Notes under the pieces: generated by a model
What the model was told of the DNA's origin: nothing
The model's input: only the letters and a program-made list of their open reading frames with translations
Databases searched by the model: none
Translations under genes and position numbers: made by a program
DNA from: a virus
Direction: 5' to 3' (one strand)
DNA length: 64,000 nt
IMG/VR virus record: IMGVR_UViG_3300043411_001314
Coordinates: 32,001-96,000 of that record
In this document: positions 11,334-61,132 of the stretch, in pieces
Numbering within the stretch: position 1 is the stretch's first letter
Layout: the number at the start of each line of letters is the position of its first letter

Positions 11334-12737
11334 TCACGCTCCTCTCAGGGCCAGCCAGGGGCCGAAGTCCGACCACGACGTCGCCGGGCACGTGGCGGGC
11401 ATCGCCCCAGTAGTGACACCCGTCGCGGTGCGGGTGATGTTGTTGCGGGTGATGTTCGATCCCATCGTGTTGGGGGTCCATGGCGGATCGACCACGAAGC
11501 TCCCGCCGCCGCCGCCGACGCAGTGGACGGTCGGCGCCGTCGTGAGCGCATCGAGCAGGACCCCCGCCCAGTACAGGGTGGGGACCGTCGGCGACACCGA
11601 CGCAGCGACAGTGCGGTACCCGGTCGTCGTCGACATATTGAGGGTGCCGAGATCGGCGATCAGTGCCAGCCCGTCAGGGAGCAGGGTGGTTGGGTCCGAC
11701 GGGTACAGCCCGAACCGCCACGTCGAAGTCCCCACCACCGTCTGGTTCAGGGCGAGGGCGTCGTAGCTGCCAGGCTCGACGAACACCGGGACGAGAGCCA
11801 TCCGCCCGGTGACAATCATGAAGTGGTAGGTGGCGTTCGCCGCGCGGGTCTGGAGCCCGTGGTACTGGCCGGACTGTGCGGGCAGGATCAAGCCGGGCCT
11901 GCCCCACGTCTGATCGCCTCGCAGGAACGTGGCCGACGACGCCGTACCCGACCCGAGGCGTGCGGTGGCGACGGTGCCCGACGAGATATCTGCGGCCCCG
12001 TGAACGTGGCTCGTCGGGGTGCGGGCATCGGACAGCCGCGAGTCGTTGCCCTGCGCTGCGGTGCCCGCCGTGGTGCCGTAGGAGACGGCCAGGGTGCGGT
12101 TGGCCGACAGGTCCCCACCACCGGTGAGCCCGGTCCCGGCAGAGATCGTGCGAGAGGTTGGGGCGGCGCCCACGTCGGCGGCGTCGAGCACCACCGCGCC
12201 CGTCTCGCCGTTCACCGAATCGACCGCACCACCACCGGCGCCGATCGGCCCCACTTCCGCGCCAGCCTCGTCGCGGACATACAGCCCGTCGGTGCGGGCG
12301 ACGAGGCGCTGCGACCCCGCTGCGGGGTTGGTCACGTCCGCGGTCTCGGGGAGGTCCACGAACCCGTTGGCGGTGAGTGTCACGATCGTCCCGGTCGACC
12401 CGACCCCCACGACATCAGACAGGTCGACCGCCCCGCCGGCGGGAGCCTCGATGTCATACACCGGGTACTCCACCCCGCCGATCACCTCGAGCACCTGGTA
12501 CGTCCAGTTGACCGGGACCACGTCGGGGTCGTCCGTGGCGGGAAGGCTGATGCTGATCGCGCCGTCCTCAAGCCACACCCGTCGAGCGGTGGGGAGTACG
12601 ATGGCATCGGACGTCGTGGTGATGCGAGTGGCGCGCGGTGTAAACACCACATACCCACTACCCGGGTCTCCGGTGGCGATGTCCACCCAAGTCCCAGTGA
12701 CGGTGCAGGTTTGGTAATCAACGGGGAGAGGCATCAA
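11334..12737 (-). CDS. tail fibre protein
   Basis: VDSVNGETGAVVL.AADVGA, AGTGLTGGGDLSANRT, GNDSRLSDAR, ARLGSGTASSATFLRGDQTW fibre motifs. Confidence 0.8.
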   Translation of the reverse strand: MMPLPVDYQTCTVTGTWVDIATGDPGSGYVVFTPRATRITTTSDAIVLPTARRVWLEDGAISISLPATDDPDVVPVNWTYQVLEVIGGVEYPVYDIEAPAGGAVDLSDVVGVGSTGTIVTLTANGFVDLPETADVTNPAAGSQRLVARTDGLYVRDEAGAEVGPIGAGGGAVDSVNGETGAVVLDAADVGAAPTSRTISAGTGLTGGGDLSANRTLAVSYGTTAGTAAQGNDSRLSDARTPTSHVHGAADISSGTVATARLGSGTASSATFLRGDQTWGRPGLILPAQSGQYHGLQTRAANATYHFMIVTGRMALVPVFVEPGSYDALALNQTVVGTSTWRFGLYPSDPTTLLPDGLALIADLGTLNMSTTTGYRTVAASVSPTVPTLYWAGVLLDALTTAPTVHCVGGGGGSFVVDPPWTPNTMGSNITRNNITRTATGVTTGAMPATCPATSWSDFGPWLALRGA

Positions 12738-25253: not shown

Positions 25254-25282
25254 TTGACTCACCACTGGGTGGTCTGTAGGAT
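25254..25282 (+). promoter_or_regulatory. sigma70-type promoter for leader peptide and tRNA-Pro/Trp
   Basis: TTGACT-N17-TAGGAT; spacer contains ACCAC-TGG-GTGGT palindrome. Confidence 0.75.
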
Positions 25283-25289
25283 TTCAACC

Positions 25290-25334
25290 GTGCGCACCAC
25301 CCTGCTCCCACCCGTCCCGCGATGGCGGGGCTGA
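25290..25334 (+). CDS. putative leader peptide MRTTLLPPVPRWRG (Pro/Trp sensing)
   Basis: GTG CGC ACC ACC CTG CTC CCA CCC GTC CCG CGA TGG CGG GGC TGA, 7 nt after the -10 box; shares 14 nt with the Ser leader. Confidence 0.7.
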   Translation: MRTTLLPPVPRWRG

Positions 25335-25370
25335 CGGCCTGATTGGTCGGTCACACCCCGCGCGAGTCTC

Positions 25371-25444
25371 CGGGGTGTGGTGTAGTGGTAGCACGGGTAG
25401 TTTGGGACTATCTGGTGGGGGTTCGATTCCCTCCACCCCGACCA
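25371..25444 (+). tRNA. tRNA-Pro(UGG)
   Basis: CGGGGTG...CACCCCG-A-CCA acceptor; GGTAG-TTTGGGA-CTATC anticodon arm; GGTTCGATTCC. Confidence 0.92.
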
Positions 25445-28207: not shown

Positions 28208-31200
28208 GTGGAGACTTACAAGCTGAACTTCAAGGTCGGGATCGACAAGACCGACGTCACCGCGTTCATCAGGGACATGAATCGTGCCGCCGCCGAGGCG
28301 TCATCTTCCATCGCCAAGGCTGCTTCCGGCGCCCAGGCGAAGGTGGGCGCCGGAGCTCCTGGCGCTGTAGCCACCCGGGGTATTGCCGACATCGAAGGTC
28401 AGCTGCGCGGCAGGGTTGGCTTGGCCGAGCGGTCCGGCCTGTTCTCCACCGGCCAAATACGGGACCTTCAGGGTGCCGTCAACGAGATCGTCCGACTTGC
28501 CAGGTCGGGGGTCCGCAAGGACGTCACCGCCGCTGGGCGCAACCTCACGTCCGACCTCGGTGCGTCGGGCGGTAAGGCGTACCGGTCGCGTGTCGGCGGC
28601 GTCGAGCAGTCGGTCTACCGTCGCGCCGAGGCCGAGGCCCAGGCCGCCGAGGCCGCCACTCAGGCCGCCGCCGAAGAGGGGCGACTGAACGCTTGGCGTA
28701 AGAACGCCCGGGCCCGCCTTCAGGGGTCCATCTCCACCGAGAACGCCGCCCGCGCCGAGTCGGCCAAGGCCGCCGAGCTCGAGGCCGCTGCCCGACTGAA
28801 GGAGGCCAATGAGGCGGAGAAGCAGGCCGCAGCGGCCAAGGCCAGGGCTGACAAGGCCCGCCCCATCTACGGCCCCCCGAAGCCGCCGAAAAGCGGGGTC
28901 GCCCCAGGTGTCGCCGCGGCCGAACGGCAGGCCAAGGAGCTCGCCGCTGCCCAGGCCAAGCTCGACAGGGAGCAGGCCAGGGCCCAGGCCAAGGCCGCCG
29001 CCGCCGCCTCTGAGCCGGAAGATGCCGTCCTGAAGAGGTTTGGTCTCCTCCCAGAGGGGGGGCTGGACTATTACTCCAAGGTGATGGGTGGCCCTGGCCC
29101 TGGCCTTGGTTGGGCTCGCCTCAACGCCGGACCCACGTCGGCGCTCGATCGCTACCGCGACCTGAACACCGGCATCGGCCGTAACGAGTTCGCGAACAAC
29201 ACCGTCCTCGATGGGGATGACAAGACCCTCGCCGAGATGTCGGCCGAGGCCCGCGCCAACCTGACCTCGCTTGAGCGGATGCGTCAGGCCACCGAGGAGC
29301 TGGCCAAGGCCGAGCAGTACCTGGCAGACCTCATGGGCCTGTCAAGCCGCGACATGTCCGGCAAGCTCCGCGCCGCCGCCGGGCCCGGTCGTCTGGCCGA
29401 ACTCCTGGAGCTCCGTGCGAAAAGGGAGGGGACCGCCGGGCTTCAAGACCTTGAGGGGTTTGAGGCCGCCGCCGACCAACGCCGGGCCAACGAGGTCAAG
29501 GAAGCCAAGAACAGGTACATCACCGACGACGACCTCGACGCCGCCGTCGGCGTGAAGGTGGAATCGGAGAGGCACACCAACGTCATCCGCGGCCGTGCCG
29601 CCGACGAGAAGCGCAGCAACCAGCGGCTGATCGAGGCCGACGCGGAACGAATCGTCGCGACCAACTTGGCATCCTCGGCTTCGAAGCGCATGGCTGCCGA
29701 CATGATGCGTGCGGCGGGGGTGGGACGCGAACGTGAGGCGACGCCGACGCAGCGTTTCCAGGCGTGGATCGCCAACCGCGGGGGCGGCGACAACCTGCCC
29801 CGCCCAGCCACCGACTTCATGCAGGGCAAGCAGCTGGCTGCTTCCCGCATCATGACCACCGCCTCCTTCGCCGCCTCTGGTGGCCTGCTGTACGGCGCCA
29901 TGAGCCTCGGGTCCGACATCATGCGGGAGTCGACCGAGCTCCAGGTCGAGCTCGGGATCATCGAGTCCCAGATCAACTCCCTGGACGCCACCGCCAACAA
30001 GGTGTCGCTCGAGAAGCTCCGCGACGAGCTCCACAAGACGTCCGTGGCGTCGGGTGTGGAGATGAACGAGGTTGCCAACGTCACCCGCCAGCTCGCCGGG
30101 GCATTCGCCGACCCGGAGACCGGGAACGCCAACTTCGCCCTCGCCCAGAAGGAGGCGGACGTCGCCCTGCGGTACTCGAAGATCTCTGGGATCCCCCAGC
30201 AGGAGATCACCGACTCCATGTCGGCCATCTCCCTGGCCTTCCGGGATGTCGACACCGACGTACCGCTTGGGTTCGAGCGGATTCTCGACACGGTCCTGGC
30301 GCTGGAGAACCGCTTCGGCGTTCTCAGCCCGGAGATCGTCAAGTTCACCGCCGATCTTGCCCCCCTCGGCAAGGAGCTCGGCTTCACCCAGGAGCAGCTG
30401 TCCGGCCTCGGCGCCGTCGCCCAGTCGCGGTCCGGGCGCTCCGGCACGGTGCTGTCCGAGCAGCTCGGCCGGATCCTGCCGTCCCTCCAGGACCAACAGA
30501 AGAAGCTGTATGAGCTGTTCAGCTTGAACGCAAACACCGAGGGTGCCGTTGGCGATCTGATGAAGGGGTTCTCGGAGGGTGACACCCCCGAGGTCCTGCG
30601 GACCCTGGTGAAGAACTACGACAAGTTGACGAAGGAGCAGCAGAACGAGATGGCGTCTCTCGTCGGCTCCCGCCGCGAGGCCGCCACCTTCTACGCCCTG
30701 TTGGATTCGCCGAAGCTGACCGAGGATGTCCTCAACGGGGACTTCGTCGCCGGCGGTGAGTTCGAGAATCGCTGGGACAGCTACGAGCAGACCGTCACCC
30801 TGTCAACCCAGCGGATGCGTCGGGCGGTAGAGGAGTTCGGCCAGAAGCTGTTCGACGCTGGCATCGACGACCTGTTGATCAAGGGTGCTCAGTTCGGCAC
30901 CGTCATAGCCGCCGCCCTGTCTGGCGCTGTCAGCTGGATGACCAAGCTGAACGACCTGATGGGTGGTCACCTGACCACGGTACTGCTCGCCGTGGGGGCG
31001 TGGAGAACCTTCGGGCCCTACGTCGCCAAGGCGGTGGCGGCGATGAAGGGATCAGCGGCCTTCGGCGGCCTCATGGGGCGGAGCGGAGCGGTTCCCGGGG
31101 CGGCCGGCCCCATGGTCGGAGCGGGGCCGTTCGGTGGCATGCTGTACGCCGCCCCCCCCGTCCAGGGCCCCCCCGCCCCGGGCACTCCTGGCGCCCCCCG

Positions 31201-39338: not shown

Positions 39339-39603
39339 CCCCATGATCAGCCTCCCCTACCACGTCGACGGCGTGCAGTTCGACGCGAACATGACCGGCA
39401 TCACCGTCCAGTACTCCATCCCCGAGGAGGTGTCGTCGAAGGGGTCCGAGTACCGCCAACGCAGCATCCCCCTGGGCGTGTCCGAGGAGATCGACCAGAT
39501 CGTGGCCGACATGATGGACTCGCTCTGCCAGGTGCTCGACCTCCACACCGTCGTGCTCCGTGCGCCGGCGGACCGGGTGGCGTCTCGGCCGTTCACCAAG
39601 TGA
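39331..39603 (+). CDS. hypothetical protein
   Basis: RBS AAAGGA; coupled ORF. Confidence 0.55.
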   Translation: MYDPMISLPYHVDGVQFDANMTGITVQYSIPEEVSSKGSEYRQRSIPLGVSEEIDQIVADMMDSLCQVLDLHTVVLRAPADRVASRPFTK

Positions 39604-39619
39604 GGTGTCCGCGGTCTGG

Positions 39620-40087
39620 GTGATACTGCTCAGCTTGTGGATCCTGGTGGCCCTGGCCGCCGCCGCCTTCGTCCTCGCCAGACGAGCTCGAGTGTTCAGC
39701 TCTATGCCGCGGACCGGGGACGTCACCTCAGACCGAGACCCCTTCACCCAGGGCCCCTGGGCCGGGACTGAGGGGGCCGTGCTGGTGGACCGGCGCATCC
39801 TTGTCGCCGTGGCCGAGCCCGAGGAGCTCCGCCTGGCCACCTCACACCGGGACCGGGTCAGACTGCTCGAGCGGCAGATCAAGGCCGAGGGCCTCCGGGT
39901 CCCGGTGCGCATCAACCTCGACCAGCGCGGCCAGCTGTGCGTAGCTGATGGGCACCACCGGCTGGCCGTGGCCACCCGCATGGGGGCCGAGCGGGTCCCG
40001 GTGGTTCTCGTTGGCGTGGAGCAGATCCGGGGGTGGTCCAGGCCCGCCGCCTCCTTCTTCATCAGCGCCCTTGTCACCTGTTCGTAA
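39620..40087 (+). CDS. ParB/sulfiredoxin-like domain protein, possible N-terminal TM
   Basis: I.AEGL.VPV...VADGHHRLAVA..MG.ERVPV. Confidence 0.7.
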   Translation: MILLSLWILVALAAAAFVLARRARVFSSMPRTGDVTSDRDPFTQGPWAGTEGAVLVDRRILVAVAEPEELRLATSHRDRVRLLERQIKAEGLRVPVRINLDQRGQLCVADGHHRLAVATRMGAERVPVVLVGVEQIRGWSRPAASFFISALVTCS

Positions 40088-40100
40088 TCTTTGATACGAT
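40071..40100 (+). promoter_or_regulatory. sigma70-type promoter, leaderless
   Basis: TTGTCA-N18-TACGAT-N6-ATG(40107). Confidence 0.6.
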
Positions 40101-40106
40101 GTTCCG

Positions 40107-40637
40107 ATGAGAAAACTCATCATTGCATCCATCCTTCTACTCTCCGTCGTGGCCTGTCAGCCGGCGCCGGCGCTAGGAGCGCAGTACCACCACTGGTCTG
40201 AGACACCAGCGGAAGTCAGGGCCGAACACGAGCCCGAAGTGATCCAAGCCTGGATCGACACCTACTGGGCCAACGAGTGGGTGCGTATCTACTGGGAGCG
40301 CATCGCCGCCTTCGCCGCCGCCTACGAGCACGCCCAGCGGGTGGCTGCCGAACAGGCCGCCTACCCGTCCGGCCAGTGTGGTGGCGACCTGCCCCCGTGC
40401 TGGGTGATGCGCAAGGAGTCCAAGGGGGACATCCGGATCTGGAACGGTGGCTGTTACAACGGTCCGTGTGGTGGGCGCTCCTCGACTGCGTCCGGTAAGT
40501 GGCAGTTCATCCGGCGCACCTGGGCCGGCTTCGGCGGGTACGCCAATGCGGCCGACGCCCCCGAGCGCGTGCAGGACGACAAGGCTCGTCAGGTCTGGGC
40601 CGGCGGCGGTGGCTGTTCCCACTGGAGCGCCTGCTGA
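40107..40637 (+). CDS. lipoprotein with Rpf-like transglycosylase domain
   Basis: Lipobox VVAC; ES.G...ASGKWQFI..TW..FGG...AADAP..VQD..A..VW...G.SHW.C. Confidence 0.85.
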   Translation: MRKLIIASILLLSVVACQPAPALGAQYHHWSETPAEVRAEHEPEVIQAWIDTYWANEWVRIYWERIAAFAAAYEHAQRVAAEQAAYPSGQCGGDLPPCWVMRKESKGDIRIWNGGCYNGPCGGRSSTASGKWQFIRRTWAGFGGYANAADAPERVQDDKARQVWAGGGGCSHWSAC

Positions 40638-40873
40638 TGCCGACTATCGACGACGTCTTCCCGCCCGAGCAGTGCTCGCCAGAGCCCGAACGGGCAGCCG
40701 ACCCTGAGGTCCTCGGCACCCGCCTGGCGATGGAGCGGGCAATCCACCTCTGCCCCCTCGGGGACGACTCGAAGACCCGCTGCTGCGGCGTCCTGATGTT
40801 CGAGCTGCCGCTCGACGACCGCATCACCATGGACCCCCACCGGGTCCGGTGCATGGTAAGGTCGTTCCCGTGA
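40637..40873 (+). CDS. hypothetical protein
   Basis: HLCP....T.CCG...ELP..DRIT.DP..V.C. Confidence 0.6.
   Translation: MPTIDDVFPPEQCSPEPERAADPEVLGTRLAMERAIHLCPLGDDSKTRCCGVLMFELPLDDRITMDPHRVRCMVRSFP
40854..40862 (+). promoter_or_regulatory. extended -10 promoter candidate for Ser leader
   Basis: TG-G-TAAGGT, 7 nt before GTG 40870 (same spacing as the Pro/Trp leader). Confidence 0.45.
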
Positions 40874-40911
40874 CCACCACCCTGCTCCGATCTTCATCGA
40901 GTAGCAGCTAG
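40870..40911 (+). CDS. putative leader peptide MTTTLLRSSSSSS (Ser sensing)
   Basis: GTG ACC ACC ACC CTG CTC CGA TCT TCA TCG AGT AGC AGC TAG. Confidence 0.75.
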   Translation: MTTTLLRSSSSSS

Positions 40912-40937
40912 CACCGCGGACCATTCCGCGGTGCCTT

Positions 40938-41020
40938 GGAGGGTGCCGCGGAATGGTCCGCAACCGGTCTCGAAAACCGGGGTGGTCGAAAGGCCAGGGG
41001 TTCGATCCCTCCACCTTCCG
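40938..41020 (+). tRNA. tRNA-Ser(CGA)
   Basis: GGAGGGT...ACCTTCC-G; CCGGT-CTCGAAA-ACCGG; long variable arm. Confidence 0.9.
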
Positions 41021-41024
41021 CCCT

Positions 41025-41113
41025 GGAGCGTTGACCGAGTAGGTAAGGTGCCGGGTTGCTAACCCGAGGTCAGCCGTCAGGCTGGGCAGGTTCGAACCCT
41101 GCACGCTCCGCCA
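41025..41113 (+). tRNA. tRNA-Ser(GCU)
   Basis: GGAGCGT...ACGCTCC-G-CCA; anticodon loop TTGCTAA; long variable arm. Confidence 0.9.
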
Positions 41114-41267
41114 TACAGAACGAGCAGTTCCCGGCGAAGATGTCGTTGCTTCCCACGTACTGGCCGTGGACGCAGTAGTTCCTGGAGTGCAGCGGATCCC
41201 GCTCGTCCATGAGCTTCTTCCACTGCCGGCCGACGGTCTCGCTCGGGCCTCGGGCGGGCCCTGTCAT
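41070..41267 (-). CDS. small Cys-containing protein; stop lies antisense inside tRNA-Ser
   Basis: YCVHGQYVG......NCSFC; RBS GAGAGG. Confidence 0.5.
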   Translation of the reverse strand: MTGPARGPSETVGRQWKKLMDERDPLHSRNYCVHGQYVGSNDIFAGNCSFCMAERAGFEPAQPDG

Positions 41268-41298
41268 GACCCTGCCTCTCGCCGCCATTCGCGCCAGC

Positions 41299-41838
41299 TC
41301 ATGGGTCTACCTGTCCGGTGTTGGCCACGAGGTCTTCGAGGCTGGGGTGGTGGGAGTACCAGTCGTCGGGTGAGTCCTCGCGGGCGTTGAGGCGGATCTC
41401 CATCCACCCGAAGGCGAGGTGGAGGATGTCGGTCTCATCGGTCGGGTCGAGGGTGATCTCGGACTCGATCTGAAGCTCCTCGGCTAGCTCGGCCAGCCAG
41501 GCTGCCTCCCGGGAGTCCGGACATTCCGGGTCAGGGGCCCAGGCCCGGAGTGTCACTCTGACACGGTGGCGGTGGGCGGCCAGCACGAGGCGGGTCAGGT
41601 TCGCCGAGTCGTAGGTGCTCAGCTCGGAGCGGCACAAGAAGGCGAGCCCGGTCGGGGTGACCCATGGACGGGTGCCGGCATCGTGCAGGTTGTAGATCCG
41701 TGTCATGTCCCACATCGCCTGGGCGCAGCGCTGCTGGGGCTCGGAGAGCTCGAGGTTCAGCCGGCGGGCGAGCCAGTCGGCCCCGGGGTAGGTCGTGGTC
41801 GCGGTCATGGGGAACCATGCATCCTCAGGGGTGGCCAT
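41299..41838 (-). CDS. hypothetical protein
   Basis: LSTYDSANLTRLVLAAH..RVRV...HHPSLE phage motif; coupled to PNK stop. Confidence 0.65.
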   Translation of the reverse strand: MATPEDAWFPMTATTTYPGADWLARRLNLELSEPQQRCAQAMWDMTRIYNLHDAGTRPWVTPTGLAFLCRSELSTYDSANLTRLVLAAHRHRVRVTLRAWAPDPECPDSREAAWLAELAEELQIESEITLDPTDETDILHLAFGWMEIRLNAREDSPDDWYSHHPSLEDLVANTGQVDP

Positions 41839-42830
41839 CAGAAGTCCCCTTCCGCTACCTGCCAGCAGGGCAGGCCGAGTAGGCGCCACATGCGCACCAC
41901 GCTGTTGCGGTCGTCGAACACGGCGGTCACGTGGAAGTGCGGCCGGATCCGCTCGGTGTAGATCTCGAGTTTGACCACCGAGTCCGGGCGCTGGTCGTCG
42001 CCGGCCCGCATCATCAGCTTGGCCCCCAGGAGCCGCTCCTCCTGGTCCCGGGTGAGGAGGCCGTCTTCCCGGGCCTTGGTCGTGGACTTCACGAACCAGT
42101 CGACCGTCTGGCTCTCGTGCTTGTCGCTCCGACCGGAGCAGAGGATGACGTGCGGCTGGCCGGCCGCGGCTCGGGCCACCTGGACGTTGAACTTGTCCGT
42201 GTGGCAGTTGGCGGCGTCGTAGGGGTTGCGGCCCTGGTGGATGGCCAGGGTGCCGTCGAGGTCGACCAGGCAGGTCTCGGGGAGGGTCTCGTCCTGCCAC
42301 ACCTGCAGCTTGGGCTTCGCCGGAGCGTCGGAGAGCAGGAGCTCGCAGGCTTCACGGGGGCTCAGCGTCTGCCAGCGGCGGAATCTCCCCCGGTTCTCAG
42401 CGGCCTCCTGGTAGATACGCCCGACGACATCGGGCCCGACGCTCTTGGGCCGGACCTTGTCTCGGTACAGGCAGTCCTGTAGGGGTACGTCGGTGAAGTC
42501 CACGATGGCCACGTCCGCTTCGACGGCGATCATCCGTGAGATCCTCGCCGGCGTGGAGGGGTTGGCGTGCGTGTTGTGCACGATGACGTCACGGCCACGC
42601 GCCACGGCCTCGTACACGACCTGGTCGTGGACGCGCTTCACCAGCGTCTCGTCGATCTTGCCCATGCCGTCGACGAACGCCCTGCCGCGGTCGACCATCG
42701 AGCGGAGGTCGTCGAGCGACACCAGCTTCACCCGGCCGGCCGGCAGACCATCAGCGACTCCCTTGGCCCACGTCGACTTCCCGGACCCCGGCGCACCGCG
42801 GGTGAACAACACCACTGGGCGCCGACTCAT
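41838..42830 (-). CDS. pnk: polynucleotide 5'-kinase/3'-phosphatase
   Basis: GAPGSGKSTWA P-loop; DLDGTLA HAD motif; SGR; FDDR..VV.MWR.LGL.C.QV. Confidence 0.95.
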   Translation of the reverse strand: MSRRPVVLFTRGAPGSGKSTWAKGVADGLPAGRVKLVSLDDLRSMVDRGRAFVDGMGKIDETLVKRVHDQVVYEAVARGRDVIVHNTHANPSTPARISRMIAVEADVAIVDFTDVPLQDCLYRDKVRPKSVGPDVVGRIYQEAAENRGRFRRWQTLSPREACELLLSDAPAKPKLQVWQDETLPETCLVDLDGTLAIHQGRNPYDAANCHTDKFNVQVARAAAGQPHVILCSGRSDKHESQTVDWFVKSTTKAREDGLLTRDQEERLLGAKLMMRAGDDQRPDSVVKLEIYTERIRPHFHVTAVFDDRNSVVRMWRLLGLPCWQVAEGDF

Positions 42831-43294
42831 GACATCCCCATGTGCCGCGCCTGGAGGCTGCCAGAGTAGGCGGACCGATAGAGGGAGGCCAGGAACATCA
42901 GCATGTCCCCGAAGGCCATGCCCTCCTCGACCGCCTCGTCGACGATGTCTAGGGCGGCGTCGATGTTGCCACCGGACAGCAACGTCAGGAGTCGGAGAAC
43001 CCGCGCTTCGGCTGCCCGGGTGTGGTCGTCGAGCTCGATGATCTGCCCAGTGGTGGGGTGCTGGACCATCATGCCCTCCACCTCGATGGCTCCCCCTTCC
43101 GGGGAGCCGAGGGCGATCCGGATGTGGGGGAGGAGCAGCCGGGCCAGGGTGTCGATGGCGGCGATGCCGGTGATCACGTTCCCCAGGTTGGAGGCGGCTG
43201 CCACGACTTCGTGCTCGTGGGGGCTGTCCTTGATGGTGGTGACGAGGGTGTGGACGGCCTTCATGTCCGGTTCGGGTTGGTCAGGGGGCATCAT
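42827..43294 (-). CDS. hypothetical protein
   Basis: Coupled between PNK and RNA ligase. Confidence 0.6.
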   Translation of the reverse strand: MMPPDQPEPDMKAVHTLVTTIKDSPHEHEVVAAASNLGNVITGIAAIDTLARLLLPHIRIALGSPEGGAIEVEGMMVQHPTTGQIIELDDHTRAAEARVLRLLTLLSGGNIDAALDIVDEAVEEGMAFGDMLMFLASLYRSAYSGSLQARHMGMS

Positions 43295-44427
43295 CAGGAT
43301 CTCCAGTGAAAGGAAAGCTCGAGCTCGGGCCGGGCGGCTGCCCAGCATGCGGCTTTGAACTTGGTGGTGTTGCCGTCGAGCAACATGAACAGGAACGGTC
43401 GGTGCGGGCTGGCGGTTGCCAGCATGGCGAACTGCTTGCGCATGGCGCTGTCGTCTCGGATCTCGGGCGCTGGGGCGCCCATCTCCTGGAGGATGGCCCG
43501 GTACGCCTTGAAGGCGCCACGCATCACCTCCCACTTCTTGTTGCGGATGGAACGGATCTGGTCGTTCAGCCAGCGCCGGAACTCGTCGGGGACCGTGTCG
43601 TAGAGCCGGTCCATGCCGGTGTCGGTCCGCAGGTAGTCCCAGACGGTCCGACTGGTGCAGCCGGTGAGGAGGGCGTAGAGGCGGACGTACTCGGCTTCCT
43701 TGGCTTTGGCCCGGGTCACGCCGTCGGCGGACACCAGCACGTACCCCTCGCTGTTCGGCCGTGACGGCAGGGACGGAAGGTCATGCGGTCCACCGAGGAT
43801 GCCGAGCACCTCGACGCGGGCCCACGGCCACCAGTCGAACACCGGGTCGTGAGGGGAGGTGAAGTTCCCGGTGGCGATCTCGATCGCACCGAGCAGCCGG
43901 AGCTCGGCCAGCCGGCCGTAGTCCACCACGATCCGGTTCTCCGGGTAGATGATCTCGGCCAGGATGGTGTGCTCGGCCGGGTCGAGGTCGAACGGGAGCT
44001 GGTCACACAGTGGAACCCGCTCACTGAAGAGGTCGTTGGCGAACGCAGCCTGCTTGCCGGCGAAGGATCCCTTCGTGGCCCACCGGAAGCTCCCCTCAGC
44101 GTCGAGGTGGCCGACCCCAAGCGTTCCATCGGCTTTGTCGTAGGCGGTGACAGGTGGGGCCAGGTCGATCGGCCCGGCCGGCCCGTCGTCACCGTGCTCG
44201 CCCAGGTTGAAGAACTTGGGGAAGGGGCGAGCCACCACGGTCCCGTCGTCGGCCAGGATCAGCCCGCGACAGGTCCGCGTCACGTCGTCCCAGGCCCGGG
44301 TGAACTGGACCCGCTGGGTGTAGCAGTAGATGCTGAGCGGCTGCGTCGGGTGACGTTGGGCCCGGACCAGGCCCTGTTCGATGTGGCGCTCCAGCAGCTT
44401 GGGGTTGAAGAGCTCGTCGACCTTCAC
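43294..44427 (-). CDS. T4 Rnl1-like RNA ligase
   Basis: CRGLI...VARPFPKFFN, KADGTLG, ATKGSF, EIIYPENRIVVDY, EGYV. Confidence 0.93.
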   Translation of the reverse strand: MKVDELFNPKLLERHIEQGLVRAQRHPTQPLSIYCYTQRVQFTRAWDDVTRTCRGLILADDGTVVARPFPKFFNLGEHGDDGPAGPIDLAPPVTAYDKADGTLGVGHLDAEGSFRWATKGSFAGKQAAFANDLFSERVPLCDQLPFDLDPAEHTILAEIIYPENRIVVDYGRLAELRLLGAIEIATGNFTSPHDPVFDWWPWARVEVLGILGGPHDLPSLPSRPNSEGYVLVSADGVTRAKAKEAEYVRLYALLTGCTSRTVWDYLRTDTGMDRLYDTVPDEFRRWLNDQIRSIRNKKWEVMRGAFKAYRAILQEMGAPAPEIRDDSAMRKQFAMLATASPHRPFLFMLLDGNTTKFKAACWAAARPELELSFHWRS

Positions 44428-47155: not shown

Positions 47156-47231
47156 AGGGTGGGGGTGGGCGGGCCAGTCCCAGTCCAGCGCGAGATCAAC
47201 ATCGCGCGTGACTGGGCGCCCACCCCCAGAC

Positions 47232-60298: not shown

Positions 60299-61132
60299 TC
60301 AGGCAGCCGTGGCGGCCAGGGCCCTGTCGAGCAGGGCGTCGAGGTCGAGGCCGGCGCTGGCAGTAGCAGCGGGGGCGTCGGCCGGGGCGTCACCGGTGGC
60401 TTCGGCGGCCACCTGGTCGATGGCGGCAGCCACGTCGAACGACAGCACCCCGGGATCCCAGTCCTCGAGGTGGCCATCCACGAACTGCGCCAGCTTGCCG
60501 ACGGTGGACTCGGCCACGTCGACCTCGATGACGTCACGATCAGCCAGGTCGTCGGGGTGGGCAAGCTCCTCCAGCACGAGCTGGCCGCCCCACACGCCGA
60601 GCCGGTACAGGCTGGGCGTGCCACGCAGTAGCAGCCGGCCCATCAGGACGACGTCGTTGCGCTTCGAGATGAGCTCACGCCAGACGGCGTACATCTCGAC
60701 GTCGCGATCGGACACCTTCGAGCGGGTCTTGGAGGGGCGGAGGCGGTACGTCTTACCGGACGGCAGGACCTCGTTGTCCACCTGGTCGGCGGGGTACACG
60801 CTCAGTTCGAGCCGGCCCGTCTCCTTGCCGCCGGCCTTGGCGGTGGCGACCTTCTCGGCGTCGACCTTCACCAGCGTGCCGTCGGGCATCTCGCGGGCCC
60901 GGGCCACGTCGGCCGGCAGGTACGGGCCGTGCTTCTCGTCGTCGGGGCAGATGTAGCGCTGCTCCACCCGGACCGGGGTGGCGTGATCCTCGGGGCACAC
61001 CATGCGGGTGGCCGAGTCCTCGACCTTCTTGGGGCGACCTGTGGGCACCAGGTCGAACTTCATCTCGATGATGCCGATCGAAATCGACACCCCGGAGCCA
61101 CCGGACCGTTGGGCTGTTGGTTCGTAACGCAT
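60299..61132 (-). CDS. ku: Ku-like DNA end-binding protein
   Basis: ISIGII...LVP, RVEQRYIC......DVARARE..DGTLV.V, K.Y.L.P, Y......I, LLRG...L..L. Confidence 0.75.
   Translation of the reverse strand: MRYEPTAQRSGGSGVSISIGIIEMKFDLVPTGRPKKVEDSATRMVCPEDHATPVRVEQRYICPDDEKHGPYLPADVARAREMPDGTLVKVDAEKVATAKAGGKETGRLELSVYPADQVDNEVLPSGKTYRLRPSKTRSKVSDRDVEMYAVWRELISKRNDVVLMGRLLLRGTPSLYRLGVWGGQLVLEELAHPDDLADRDVIEVDVAESTVGKLAQFVDGHLEDWDPGVLSFDVAAAIDQVAAEATGDAPADAPAATASAGLDLDALLDRALAATAA

Follow-up and report, generated by a model that had tools for sequence, protein, structure and literature searches.

A short open reading frame (ORF) ending in six serine codons lies 26 nt upstream of the gene for tRNA-Ser(CGA) in a phage of high-GC bacteria, and the RNA that begins at its stop codon can pair in two mutually exclusive ways, as a local hairpin (P1) or as a longer duplex with the tRNA itself (P2). 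The interpretation that we prefer, although we would put it at slightly less than an even chance, is that this Ser module is a ribosome-sensing leader that acts as a kinetic switch on the folding of the precursor of the first tRNA. The features of the module (Table 1) lie within the 64,000-nt stretch of DNA that was analysed (the window), which belongs to a 117.5-kb genome.

Table 1. Coordinates of the Ser module and its flanking features, in positions of the window.
Feature	Position	Strand	Details
Upstream gene	40637..40873	+	78 codons; TGA overlaps the leader GTG (GTGA); from the ORF list
-10-like box	40854..40862	+	TGg + TAAGGT, extended type, 7 nt upstream of GTG
Leader ORF	40870..40911	+	13 codons + TAG: MTTTLLRSSSSSS; homologous Ser leaders in Sparky and L107
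13-mer ACCACCCTGCTCC	40876..40888	+	identical copy in the Pro/Trp leader at 25296-25308
Ser run	40891..40908	+	six consecutive Ser codons; rare Arg codon CGA (40888-40890) just before
P1 'protector' hairpin	40911..40934	+	10 bp, loop CCAT, -19.5 kcal/mol
Anti-tRNA segment, P2 5' arm	40916..40936	+	
P2 3' arm	40941..40961	+	acceptor bases 4-8, two linker bases and whole D arm of the tRNA
(8/4) allo-tRNA-Ser(CGA)	40938..41020	+	ARAGORN 40937-41023; covariation backs the fold
allo-tRNA-Ser(CGA) stems	acceptor 40938-45/41012-19; D arm 40948-52/40957-61; T stem 40997-41000/41008-11	+	
allo-tRNA-Ser(CGA) identity positions	anticodon 40971-73; discriminator G 41020	+	
Canonical tRNA-Ser(GCT)	41025..41113	+	encoded CCA; 4 nt past discriminator 41020; 51.4 bits

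The leader ORF and the first tRNA

As originally predicted, the leader ORF reads M T T T L L R S S S S S S from its GTG to the TAG at 40909-40911, and its serine run (TCT TCA TCG AGT AGC AGC) uses five of the six synonyms, with TCC absent. The claim that TCT, TCA and AGT are unexpected in this DNA was also borne out, since these codons make up 4.1, 7.4 and 4.1%, respectively, of the 2459 Ser codons in the long, high-GC3 ORFs of the same phage. With 6 Ser among about 12-13 codons, the ORF, the translation of which is predicted, is as short as those of leader-peptide attenuators. The Ser run by itself is not rare, because nine runs of at least six Ser codons are found in the six frames of the genome, and its weight rests on its position and on its relatives. 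The TANNNT element of the -10-like box occurs 6-7 nt upstream of 14 of the 7680 ATG/GTG sites of the genome; these 14 include both tRNA leaders of the phage and several real gene starts with a -35. A consensus scan yielded no full -35/-10 promoter at the leader, where the -35 is lacking, and the AAGG inside TAAGGT could alternatively serve as a Shine-Dalgarno sequence. The 13-mer shared with the Pro/Trp leader has three exact copies in the genome, the third of which (11678-11690, minus strand) stands outside any GTG context. Promoter, translation and switching of the leader are all inferred from sequence.

The upstream ORF can be taken as coding because its third-position GC reaches 0.90 (0.95 in its second half); it forms one unit with the leaderless gene at 40107-40637, matches no Pfam family and has no relative that we found. 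The overlap between its TGA (40871-40873) and the leader GTG is as had been described, and with a coding ORF upstream the translational coupling proposed on that basis is possible, which would offer an alternative to a leaderless start of the leader ORF. Contigs spanning 40605-41500 were recovered from four DNA sequencing runs of four studies, with no gaps and 14-59 differing letters.

The tRNA-Ser(CGA) that follows is an (8/4) allo-tRNA-Ser, a kind already published, and this explains its odd D arm. When the 12-bp branch is split as 8+4, all eight acceptor and all four T-stem pairs form, and the eighth acceptor pair covaries (GC in five and AU in four homologues, paired in 9/9), whereas the pair required by the rival 7/5 arrangement forms in 6/9. 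Folded alone, the tRNA adopts the 8/4 cloverleaf as its minimum free energy (MFE) structure. Its D arm, a 5-bp stem with loop ATGG, is of tRNA-Sec-like length, and a 5-bp variable stem with a GAAA loop, G73 and the Ser anticodon CGA make charging by SerRS the prediction. The Rfam tRNA-Sec model fits it better than the tRNA model, at 39.9 bits and hence under the cut-off of 47; across 40000-42000 the Rfam scan returned tRNA models only, with T-box and all other families far under their cut-offs. A selenocysteine tRNA was ruled out by the CGA anticodon. The discriminator G is followed by CCC, so CCA is not encoded. Genes for (8/4) allo-tRNA-Ser are also present in the cultured actinophages Stella and Sparky, in at least one of which (Sparky) the gene is unannotated. 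The D arm is invariant across phages, and this conservation implies that it is the leader that was copied from the tRNA; origin of the gene as a pseudo-tRNA by palindrome conversion was ruled out, the D arm being ancestral.

Two exclusive folds and a possible kinetic switch

The hairpin had been predicted to start at the G of the TAG, and it does so, with 40911-40920 and 40925-40934 joined by ten Watson-Crick pairs; eight of the ten bases in its 5' arm are identical to those at 40943-40952 of the tRNA. The antisense relation proposed as its competitor is equally exact, 40916-40931 being the reverse complement of 40946-40961 and these being the sole two copies in the window. None of 300 shuffled 100-nt upstream regions exceeded 11 nt of such complement. 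The expected G-U extension into the acceptor strand was recovered by RNAfold as a 21-bp duplex with three G-U pairs and 40937-40940 as its loop. The description of its target as the D arm holds in that the whole arm, with the 5-bp stem and tetraloop of the 8/4 allo-tRNA, is taken up, but it is incomplete, as five of the eight acceptor-stem bases are included as well. P1 and P2 are mutually exclusive, given that 40916-40934 are common to both.

On its own, P2 is worth -43.0 kcal/mol. Over 40911-41023, P1 plus the cloverleaf (-57.7 kcal/mol) and P2 (-60.8 kcal/mol) are nearly equal in energy and separated by a findpath barrier of 28.0 in one direction and 31.1 in the other, and for these two reasons whichever fold forms first during transcription is expected to persist. 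In growing-chain MFE predictions P1 is complete from 40934 to 40955, and the barrier from P1 to P2 on the nascent 40911-40961 is 13.4. The bistable hairpin of the original prediction is thus upheld as a two-state system in silico, with near-equal energies, a high barrier and P1 forming first, but not as an equilibrium switch, because the cloverleaf is never the MFE structure. The same limit emerged from constrained folding with a ribosome footprint, which had been suggested as a test of stalling at the Ser codons against arrival at the stop: P2 was best at all positions. The penalty on the cloverleaf was smallest (10.2) with the ribosome anywhere up to the first Ser codon and largest (24) at the last Ser codons; the masks for stalls on Ser codons 1-4 end at 40902-40911, short of the P2 duplex. 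Since no ribosome position favours the cloverleaf at equilibrium, the ON state is a kinetic argument only. The full leader costs the cloverleaf 14.4 kcal/mol, a value reached by 2 of 300 shuffled leaders (mean 4.5, sd 2.6).

The switch that we envisage would work as follows. P1 would leave the tRNA free to fold and P2 would take up acceptor bases 4-8 along with the entire D arm. P1 would form once base 40934 has been transcribed, except where its 5' arm lies under a ribosome, as it should with a ribosome on the stop or the last Ser codon, because P1 begins with the G of the TAG. With fast Ser decoding, the ribosome would trail the polymerase to the stop and keep 40911-40920 unpaired, which would leave the 3' arm of P1 available to the emerging 5' half of the tRNA; P2 would lock and no tRNA would be made. 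With scarce Ser-tRNA, the ribosome would stall at the first Ser codons, P1 would form, the tRNA would fold and RNase P could release it. Such a device may supply phage tRNA on demand, for instance after a host nuclease has depleted tRNA, and on-demand supply fits the adjoining T4-type tRNA repair pair, a PNKP and an Rnl1-type ligase encoded within 3.4 kb of the module. Only tRNA-Ser(CGA) lies within reach of such a switch; tRNA-Ser(GCT) does not. Counting against it, tRNA-Ser(CGA) reads TCG alone, whereas the leader also holds AGY, TCT and TCA. P1 as an intrinsic terminator was ruled out, as 40400-41400 contains no terminator-like site and P1 is directly followed by CTTGG; the output would therefore not be classical termination.

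That P2 is the ground state in every equilibrium calculation also lends itself to a different reading, in which P2 is the working structure, either as a processing or decay site of RNase III type or through recruitment of tRNA-Ser(CGA) into a leader whose sole target would be tRNA-Ser(GCT) or the mRNA upstream; in either case the first tRNA would be sacrificed. Its 21 bp, about two helical turns, and the encoded CCA of the second tRNA, absent from the first, are in keeping with this. However, the supposedly sacrificed tRNA has kept its discriminator G and all 22 of the stem pairs counted (acceptor, D, anticodon and T) and folds alone as an 8/4 cloverleaf, its homologues in other phages do without any such partner, and the RNase III role is putative, so that we judge this reading distinctly improbable.

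Recurrence of the leader class and absence of the antisense repeat from the other loci compared

Short leader ORFs written in cognate codons recur as a class, a point in favour of the original interpretation, at the Pro/Trp locus of the same phage and, as homologous or analogous loci, in Sparky, L107, StAugustine and L109. The Pro/Trp tRNA pair is preceded by an identical -10 element, 7 nt, a GTG and the 13-mer, then by three Pro codons and one Trp codon. Leaderless short ORFs whose codons match the amino acids of the tRNAs downstream are present in the mycobacteriophages Sparky and StAugustine, as well as in a Sparky-like contig; L109 too has a cognate-codon ORF, there as part of a terminator-type leader. 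The last nine codons (GRRSSSTSR) are common to the Ser leaders of Sparky and L107, where the frame has been kept despite a net length difference of 3 nt. A uniform filter retained exactly one -10-linked short ORF ahead of each of five other actinophage tRNA clusters, to be compared with a background of 14 such sites among 7680 start codons, and the matching of leaders to clusters is maximal, with 24 cognate codons, a figure equalled in 2 of 120 permutations (mean 12). Outside Ser and L109 the enrichments of single leaders are modest (0.077, 0.026, 0.058). Of four further actinophages sampled, one was positive and one negative, and the other two gave an ambiguous and an uninformative result, respectively.

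The pairings do not recur in the same manner. The inverted repeat, the absence of which from related phages had been named as a refutation, is missing from all 11 other loci with a homologous tRNA (complement 5-8 nt), and the antisense repeat therefore appears unique to this phage in comparison with these loci, all of which come from distant phages. Among the loci scanned we saw no close relative carrying the Ser module. A scan of IMG/VR with the 16-mer gave 27 loci, none inside a tRNA-Ser; a scan with the 3' half of the tRNA gave two matches, both in unrelated low-GC phages; and the GTG-NNN-13-mer pattern gave nine loci, none close to a tRNA. The D-arm pattern, for which about 500 chance matches are expected by calculation, matched genome contigs at least 120 times, and no true tRNA was present among the 80 matches listed, as judged by a T-loop filter and by reading the two that passed it. 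Parallel pairings at the other modules are weak: the observed value was reached by 24 of 300 shuffles for the Pro module, 12 of 300 for the Sparky Ser module and 72 of 300 for the Sparky Pro module. A 1:2 / 2:3 / 3:4 scheme for the Pro module was discarded, as it was not reproduced by MFE folding and 2:3 never displaced 3:4.

All four cluster-first tRNAs of the phage have a strong hairpin 0-7 nt before their 5' end, whether or not a leader is present, and P1 may consequently have a generic role. In the account that builds on this, the short ORF would genuinely act in regulation or as a start element, but P1 would be no more than a 5'-flanking hairpin of a generic kind, and P2, which P1 as a rule keeps from forming, would be a side effect that is tolerated. 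Nothing would switch, and the antisense relation would be left over from the inverted duplication that gave rise to P1; after an RNase P cut 3 nt downstream, P1 would serve as a 3'-terminal stabiliser of the upstream mRNA, or else it would insulate the tRNA from the mRNA. Two of the four hairpins indeed stand at leaderless clusters, an inverted copy of a D arm is automatically a hairpin because the D arm already is one, the repeat is missing wherever else this tRNA was compared, and P1 is both the first fold to form and kinetically stable. Against it stand the five extra perfect pairs (GCACC/GGTGC) through which the 5' arm comes to mimic the tRNA strand, the five pairs by which P2 runs into the acceptor stem, and a stop codon that abuts P1 exactly. 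Moreover, anti-tRNA complementarity in this phage reaches 16 and 9 nt at the two clusters with a leader and 5 and 6 nt at the two leaderless ones, a partition seen in four clusters only. On balance we hold this account to be rather unlikely.

The remaining alternative places the feature at the DNA level: the palindromes would be a protein operator, a cruciform or recombination site or a template-switch scar with no function in RNA, and the Ser run would have arisen by coincidence. In favour of this, P1 forms a perfect 10-4-10 palindrome with CCGCGG, and the surroundings suggest a cassette-like insertion. The 176-aa protein of the neighbouring gene has relatives in metagenomes, for which profile scans gave 50 loci, and the tRNA segment is absent from all of them; DNA homology to the closest stops at about 40637 and extends nowhere beyond 40644. 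The 49 loci scanned for tRNAs contain no tRNA-Ser and a single tRNA-Arg, and the relatives' loci that were fetched contain neither the 78-aa gene nor the small minus-strand genes, PNKP or ligase. In IMG/VR, scans with the 176-aa, 78-aa and PNKP proteins taken singly returned no relative, and megablast of 39500-42500 against GenBank phages no match. Nevertheless, the motif has no further copy in the window even at three mismatches, the three pairs of P2 that are not Watson-Crick are all G-U in the transcribed strand and would read A-C in the opposite one, the D-arm half is nothing other than the conserved tRNA and the leader class recurs in other phages, all of which makes a DNA-level origin highly improbable.

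The original interpretation of the Ser module as a whole is therefore sustained in part: it has on its side a recurring leader class and an in-silico two-state system, and against it the absence of the repeat elsewhere and of an equilibrium ON state. If the ribosome-sensing reading is followed, the module is a terminator-less actinophage form of leader attenuation. A more general proposal, which we regard as possible but doubtful, is that actinophages use terminator-less attenuation in which a leaderless cognate-codon ORF reports decoding speed and the fold of the tRNA precursor executes the decision, and that together with PNKP and the ligase this makes up a circuit that detects depletion of host tRNA, for instance by anticodon nucleases, and replaces the tRNA. 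Phage tRNA genes are commonly viewed as passively expressed helpers of codon usage. Were the proposal true, a leader that gauges the decoding of codons served by the downstream tRNAs would make tRNA supply conditional and would tie phage tRNA genes to the conflict over cleavage of host tRNAs, and ribosome-mediated attenuation would gain an output that is the fold of the product RNA instead of a terminator or a ribosome-binding site. Since both Sparky and StAugustine can be grown on Mycobacterium smegmatis, the part of the idea that concerns the leader lends itself to direct testing. We found no paper on leader-peptide control of tRNA genes in the literature searched, which fell short of most subscription journals.

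Comparison with known attenuators and tRNAs

Transcription of amino-acid operons in enterobacteria is attenuated by leader peptides, as in the trpL, hisL, pheL, thrL, leuL and ilv leaders. In these attenuators a very short ORF with a run of the sensed codons is followed by mutually exclusive RNA helices, between which the position of the ribosome selects. The Ser module resembles them in having a short ORF with a codon run and mutually exclusive helices. It differs in that there is no U-run terminator, the product under control would be a tRNA instead of biosynthetic enzymes, this product RNA is itself taken up in the second helix, and the start is leaderless or coupled and not clearly led by a Shine-Dalgarno sequence.

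The first tRNA agrees with the (8/4) allo-tRNA-Ser species, of which bacteriophages, proteobacteria and rumen Clostridia are carriers named in the accessible part of the published account (Mukai et al. 2017, PMC5389517), in its 8-bp acceptor and 4-bp T stem, long D stem with a tetraloop, long variable arm, G73, Ser anticodon and occurrence in phages. It departs from that part of the account in that the carriers here are actinophages, cultured ones (Stella, Sparky) included, and in having an upstream antisense leader, of which that part describes none. Mycobacteria have leaderless polycysteine short-ORF attenuators (Canestrari et al., bioRxiv 10.1101/834739), and as far as the accessible part of that preprint describes them, the Ser module shares with them a host group within the Actinobacteria and a codon run for a single amino acid; its ORF may likewise open the transcript, and its output would likewise depend on an RNA duplex rather than a terminator. 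It differs from this description in that its duplex hides the 5' half of a tRNA and in that the effect of a stalled ribosome would be indirect, P1 being left free to form.

The Ser leader and its two folds

The original prediction placed a short leader ORF and a hairpin before tRNA-Ser(CGA), together with a mutually exclusive pairing into the tRNA D-arm, and this observation is confirmed. Direct reading of the sequence recovers the Ser leader, the protector hairpin (P1) and an exact 16-nt antisense (40916-40931) of tRNA bases 40946-40961, which RNAfold extends by G-U pairs, as had been proposed, into the rival helix P2 formed with the 5' half of the tRNA. The start codon overlaps the TGA of an upstream ORF (40637-40873, GC3 0.90), and the Ser codons singled out as unexpected in GC-rich DNA (TCT, TCA and AGT) jointly make up 15.6% of Ser codons in the genes of this phage. 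Runs of Ser codons are by themselves no rarity: across all six frames, the genome has nine of at least six codons. The longest tRNA complement in 300 shuffles of the upstream sequence is 11 nt, against the 16 nt observed.

The minimum free energy (MFE) structure of 40860-41030 (-90.5 kcal/mol) is dominated by P2 (z = -5.6; none of 200 shuffles equally stable). Taken alone, P1, the D arm and P2 are worth -19.5, -6.2 and -43.0 kcal/mol, respectively. Over 40870-41023, P2 with the remaining structure reaches -82.2 kcal/mol versus -67.8 for P1 plus cloverleaf, a gap of 14.4 kcal/mol. Two of 300 shuffled leaders reach this gap, to which pairing between the leader 5' end and the unfolded variable arm contributes. 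Restricted to 40911-41023, the values are -57.7 (P1 plus cloverleaf) and -60.8 (P2), with findpath barriers of 28.0 and 31.1 kcal/mol. In a growing chain, the complete P1 is present between 40934 and 40955 and P2 becomes the MFE structure at 40958, where the path to it from P1 plus D arm has a barrier of 13.4 kcal/mol, an estimated delay of minutes versus the 1-2 seconds needed to complete the tRNA. The 5' arm of P1 equals tRNA bases 40943-40952 at 8 of 10 positions, and at both differences P1 has a Watson-Crick pair where P2 has G-U. If this arm is kept open while 40941-40956 emerges, a 16-bp P2 is computed to form without a barrier. Assuming that the ribosome footprint extends 14 nt beyond the first base of the codon in the P site, a ribosome on the leader stop, which adjoins P1, masks exactly 40911-40920, and P1 stays free when the stall is on Ser codons 1-4. 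Equilibrium folding yields the cloverleaf at no ribosome position. The proposed P1/P2 switch is physically plausible and statistically non-random, and it is unique to this phage.

The (8/4) allo-tRNA and its surroundings

tRNA-Ser(CGA) is an (8/4) allo-tRNA-Ser. ARAGORN draws it with a poor D arm, and its best Rfam model is tRNA-Sec (39.9 bits, under the cut-off of 47). Folded alone (-39.8 kcal/mol), it has acceptor, D and T stems of 8, 5 and 4 bp, a tetraloop on the D stem and a long variable arm, exactly the architecture that defines allo-tRNAs, and (8/4) tRNA-Ser has been reported in phages (Mukai et al. 2017, PMC5389517). A homologue is annotated in Streptomyces phage Stella, and others lie without annotation in Mycobacterium phages Sparky and Farewell; the Sparky copy is missed by ARAGORN and scores 30.5 bits with the tRNA-Sec model. 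Further homologues account for 10 of the 19 IMG/VR loci with the D-arm pattern. Among nine distinct sequences, the eighth acceptor pair is always formed and covaries (GC in five, AU in four), and the alternative 7/5 pair forms in six. The unusual D arm is invariant in all of them and therefore ancestral, so that the upstream antisense was fitted to it.

Other tRNA features were noted as well. In Sparky, tRNA-Ser(GCT) likewise has, by RNAfold, a long D stem and eight acceptor pairs, and tRNA-Sec is again the top-scoring model for tRNA-Tyr (45 bits). Six IMG/VR loci with large tRNA arrays (L094, L097, L101, L105, L106, L112) share a conserved spacer of ~100 nt between tRNA-Ser(GCT) and allo-tRNA-Ser(CGA), the ends of which pair (CCGGCAG with CTGCCGG). 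At 14 of 27 IMG/VR loci carrying the D-arm 16-mer (within L003-L027), ARAGORN calls a 72-74-nt 'tRNA-???' with a two-base anticodon (tg), in which the 16-mer occupies a different position in the molecule. The ARAGORN 'tRNA-Thr(agt)' at 60325-60420 (96 nt, anticodon at position 38) is probably a spurious call in GC-rich sequence.

The window covers bases 32001-96000 of the 117.5-kb record of an uncultured virus, and near-identical DNA turns up in sequencing runs of wastewater, activated sludge and freshwater (14 studies). Its host is likely actinobacterial, judging from the GC-richness of the window, a polynucleotide kinase-phosphatase (PNKP) sharing ~34% identity with its counterparts in Streptomyces and Rhodococcus phages, and an encoded Rpf-like transglycosylase. 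PNKP and an Rnl1-type ligase, no more than 3.4 kb away from the Ser tRNAs, make up a T4-like pair for tRNA repair. A 72-codon ORF converges on these tRNAs and, as drawn, is antisense to the last 44 nt of tRNA-Ser(GCT). Among the closest relatives of the transglycosylase-like neighbour (L053-L059), homology stops at ~40637; these loci lack the 78-codon gene, both tRNAs, PNKP and ligase, and three of them (L056-L058) carry a homologue of the gene at 42830-43300 (-) downstream in opposite orientation, which together suggests a cassette-like, rearranged segment. In contigs of a related phage from three metagenome runs (X2, X3, X7; joint 41021 to 25479), 23 nt separate a ~90%-identical allo-tRNA-Ser from a tRNA-Trp-like gene that follows it; the upstream 270 nt do not resemble the window.

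Coordinates of the features discussed (window positions unless a locus or the genome is named)
Feature	Position	Strand	Details
Ser leader ORF	40870-40911		GTG to TAG; MTTTLLRSSSSSS
P1	40911-40920 with 40925-40934		loop CCAT
P2	40916-40936 with 40941-40961		21 bp, three G-U pairs
tRNA-Ser(CGA)	40938-41020
tRNA-Ser(GCT)	41025-41113
72-codon ORF	41070-41288	(-)	GC3 0.84, coding-like; no Pfam family
PNKP; Rnl1-type RNA ligase (named in this order)	pair 41838-42830, 43294-44427	(-)	HAD_PNKP, 2.8e-41; 2.8e-11
Pro module, before tRNA-Pro(TGG)/Trp(CCA)	25254-25380		TTGACT-17-TAGGAT, 7 nt, GTG ORF MRTTLLPPVPRWRG
Hairpin upstream of tRNA-Gln, no leader	47161-47230	(-)	-42.8 kcal/mol for 70 nt
Hairpin upstream of tRNA-Thr(TGT), no leader	genome 101295-101364	(-)	-41.1 kcal/mol for 70 nt
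Sparky Ser/Ser and Pro/Trp/Tyr leaders	pair L093 1363-1404, 1633-1686		MLIPGRRSSSTSR (Ser/Ser); MTSARRRPWPWRYTAEG (Pro/Trp/Tyr)
Sparky allo-tRNA-Ser(CGA), (8/4)	L093 1501-1583 (KM083128, about 28342-28424)		unannotated; directly 3' of tRNA-Ser(GCT)
Sparky-like contig leader	L107 328-366	(-)	MRFGRRSSSTSR
StAugustine Trp/Asn/Gln/Lys leader	L233 398-469		MSGRRWQLPQQRNY...; ends 21 nt inside tRNA-Trp

Leaders at other tRNA clusters

The genome contains exactly three copies of the 13-mer ACCACCCTGCTCC. Two of these are preceded by GTG-NNN, with the GTG 7 nt past a TANNNT box, and lie before tRNA-Ser/Ser and tRNA-Pro/Trp, the latter with a complete promoter match. A TANNNT box 6-7 nt upstream of ATG/GTG is found at 14 of 7680 such sites; the others include several real gene starts with a good -35, such as the 40107 gene heading the Ser-module unit, so this phage evidently uses leaderless transcripts. 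Its Gln/Arg and Thr clusters have no comparable leader ORF.

A uniform filter (ORF of 8-40 codons, start at most 130 nt before the first tRNA, TANNNT 6-7 nt before ATG/GTG) was applied to five further actinophage tRNA clusters and returned a single ORF for every one. The Stella match is uninformative, with 21 tRNAs downstream; the Sparky, StAugustine and Sparky-like leaders combine a -10 box, 6-7 nt and ATG/GTG, and their codons specify the amino acids of the tRNAs that follow. The Ser leaders of Sparky and the Sparky-like contig share the last nine codons before the stop, with the frame kept and a net 3-nt difference in 5' length. Binomial enrichments over six-frame usage for five leaders are 5.7e-4, 0.077, 0.026, 0.058 and 1.8e-4, and the true assignment of the five informative leaders to clusters gives 24 cognate codons; no permutation gives more, and 2 of 120 give as many (mean 12). 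It is very likely that the Ser leader is functional. Elsewhere, a lower-GC, 160-kb phage has the classical attenuator form, an SD-led Gln/Ser-rich ORF and a hairpin with a run of eight Ts ahead of allo-tRNA-Ser(TGA) and tRNA-Gln; in prophiGD54-2 the ORF is SD-led and contains only one Trp codon, Omnicron has no comparable leader ORF, and PhinkBoden is uninformative for a leader ORF.

Every leader of the window phage, Sparky and StAugustine has the rare Arg codon CGA immediately before or inside its cognate-codon run (7 of 69 codons, versus 1.2% in the genes of the window phage, P = 2e-5, and 3.2% in six-frame usage, P = 0.007); it could serve as a built-in slow codon or belong to an RNA motif that the leaders share.

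Proposed mechanism and known systems

Once P1 has formed, tRNA-Ser(CGA) should win kinetically, because escape to P2 is slow relative to tRNA completion; were the 5' arm of P1 held open during emergence of 40941-40956, P2 would form and then lock. Only this first tRNA could be gated by P1/P2. The common principle would be that a completed short ORF blocks the 5' half of the tRNA and an early stall spares it: across a short gap the terminating ribosome itself would cover the tRNA 5' end, and a long one holds an anti-tRNA segment. The Ser module may be the relay form of this principle. In Stella and StAugustine the leader stop directly adjoins or overlaps the tRNA; the gap between them is 6 nt for Sparky Ser, ~5-6 nt in the Sparky-like contig, and 26-36 nt in both modules of the window phage and Sparky Pro.

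The inverted repeat, for which the original prediction looked to related phages, is found nowhere else: all 11 other loci with a tRNA homologue, which belong to distant phages, have 5-8 nt of antisense, and at most of them some other gene, not the allo-tRNA, comes first after a leader. The Pro module has CACACCCCG (25352-25360), antisense to bases 1-9 of tRNA-Pro; the hostility of its leader to the cloverleaf is within chance (24 of 300 shuffles), and in its MFE structures the 2:3 helix never displaces 3:4. Analogous Sparky pairings are weak (12 and 72 of 300 shuffles). P1 may instead be a generic mRNA 3'-end or insulator hairpin, given that strong GC-rich hairpins also end 4-7 nt before the leader-less tRNA-Gln and tRNA-Thr(TGT). 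Those hairpins show no complementarity to their own tRNAs. Anti-tRNA complements, however, measure 16 and 9 nt at the two leader clusters of this phage against 5 and 6 nt at the two leader-less ones.

Searches of the accessible literature found no paper on leader-peptide control of tRNA genes. The Ser module would work like a leader-peptide attenuator, although it lacks a terminator. Nearest to it are the leaderless poly-Cys short-ORF attenuators of mycobacteria, in which a duplex is described as hiding a ribosome-binding site (Canestrari et al., bioRxiv 10.1101/834739); in both systems a duplex takes the place of the terminator.
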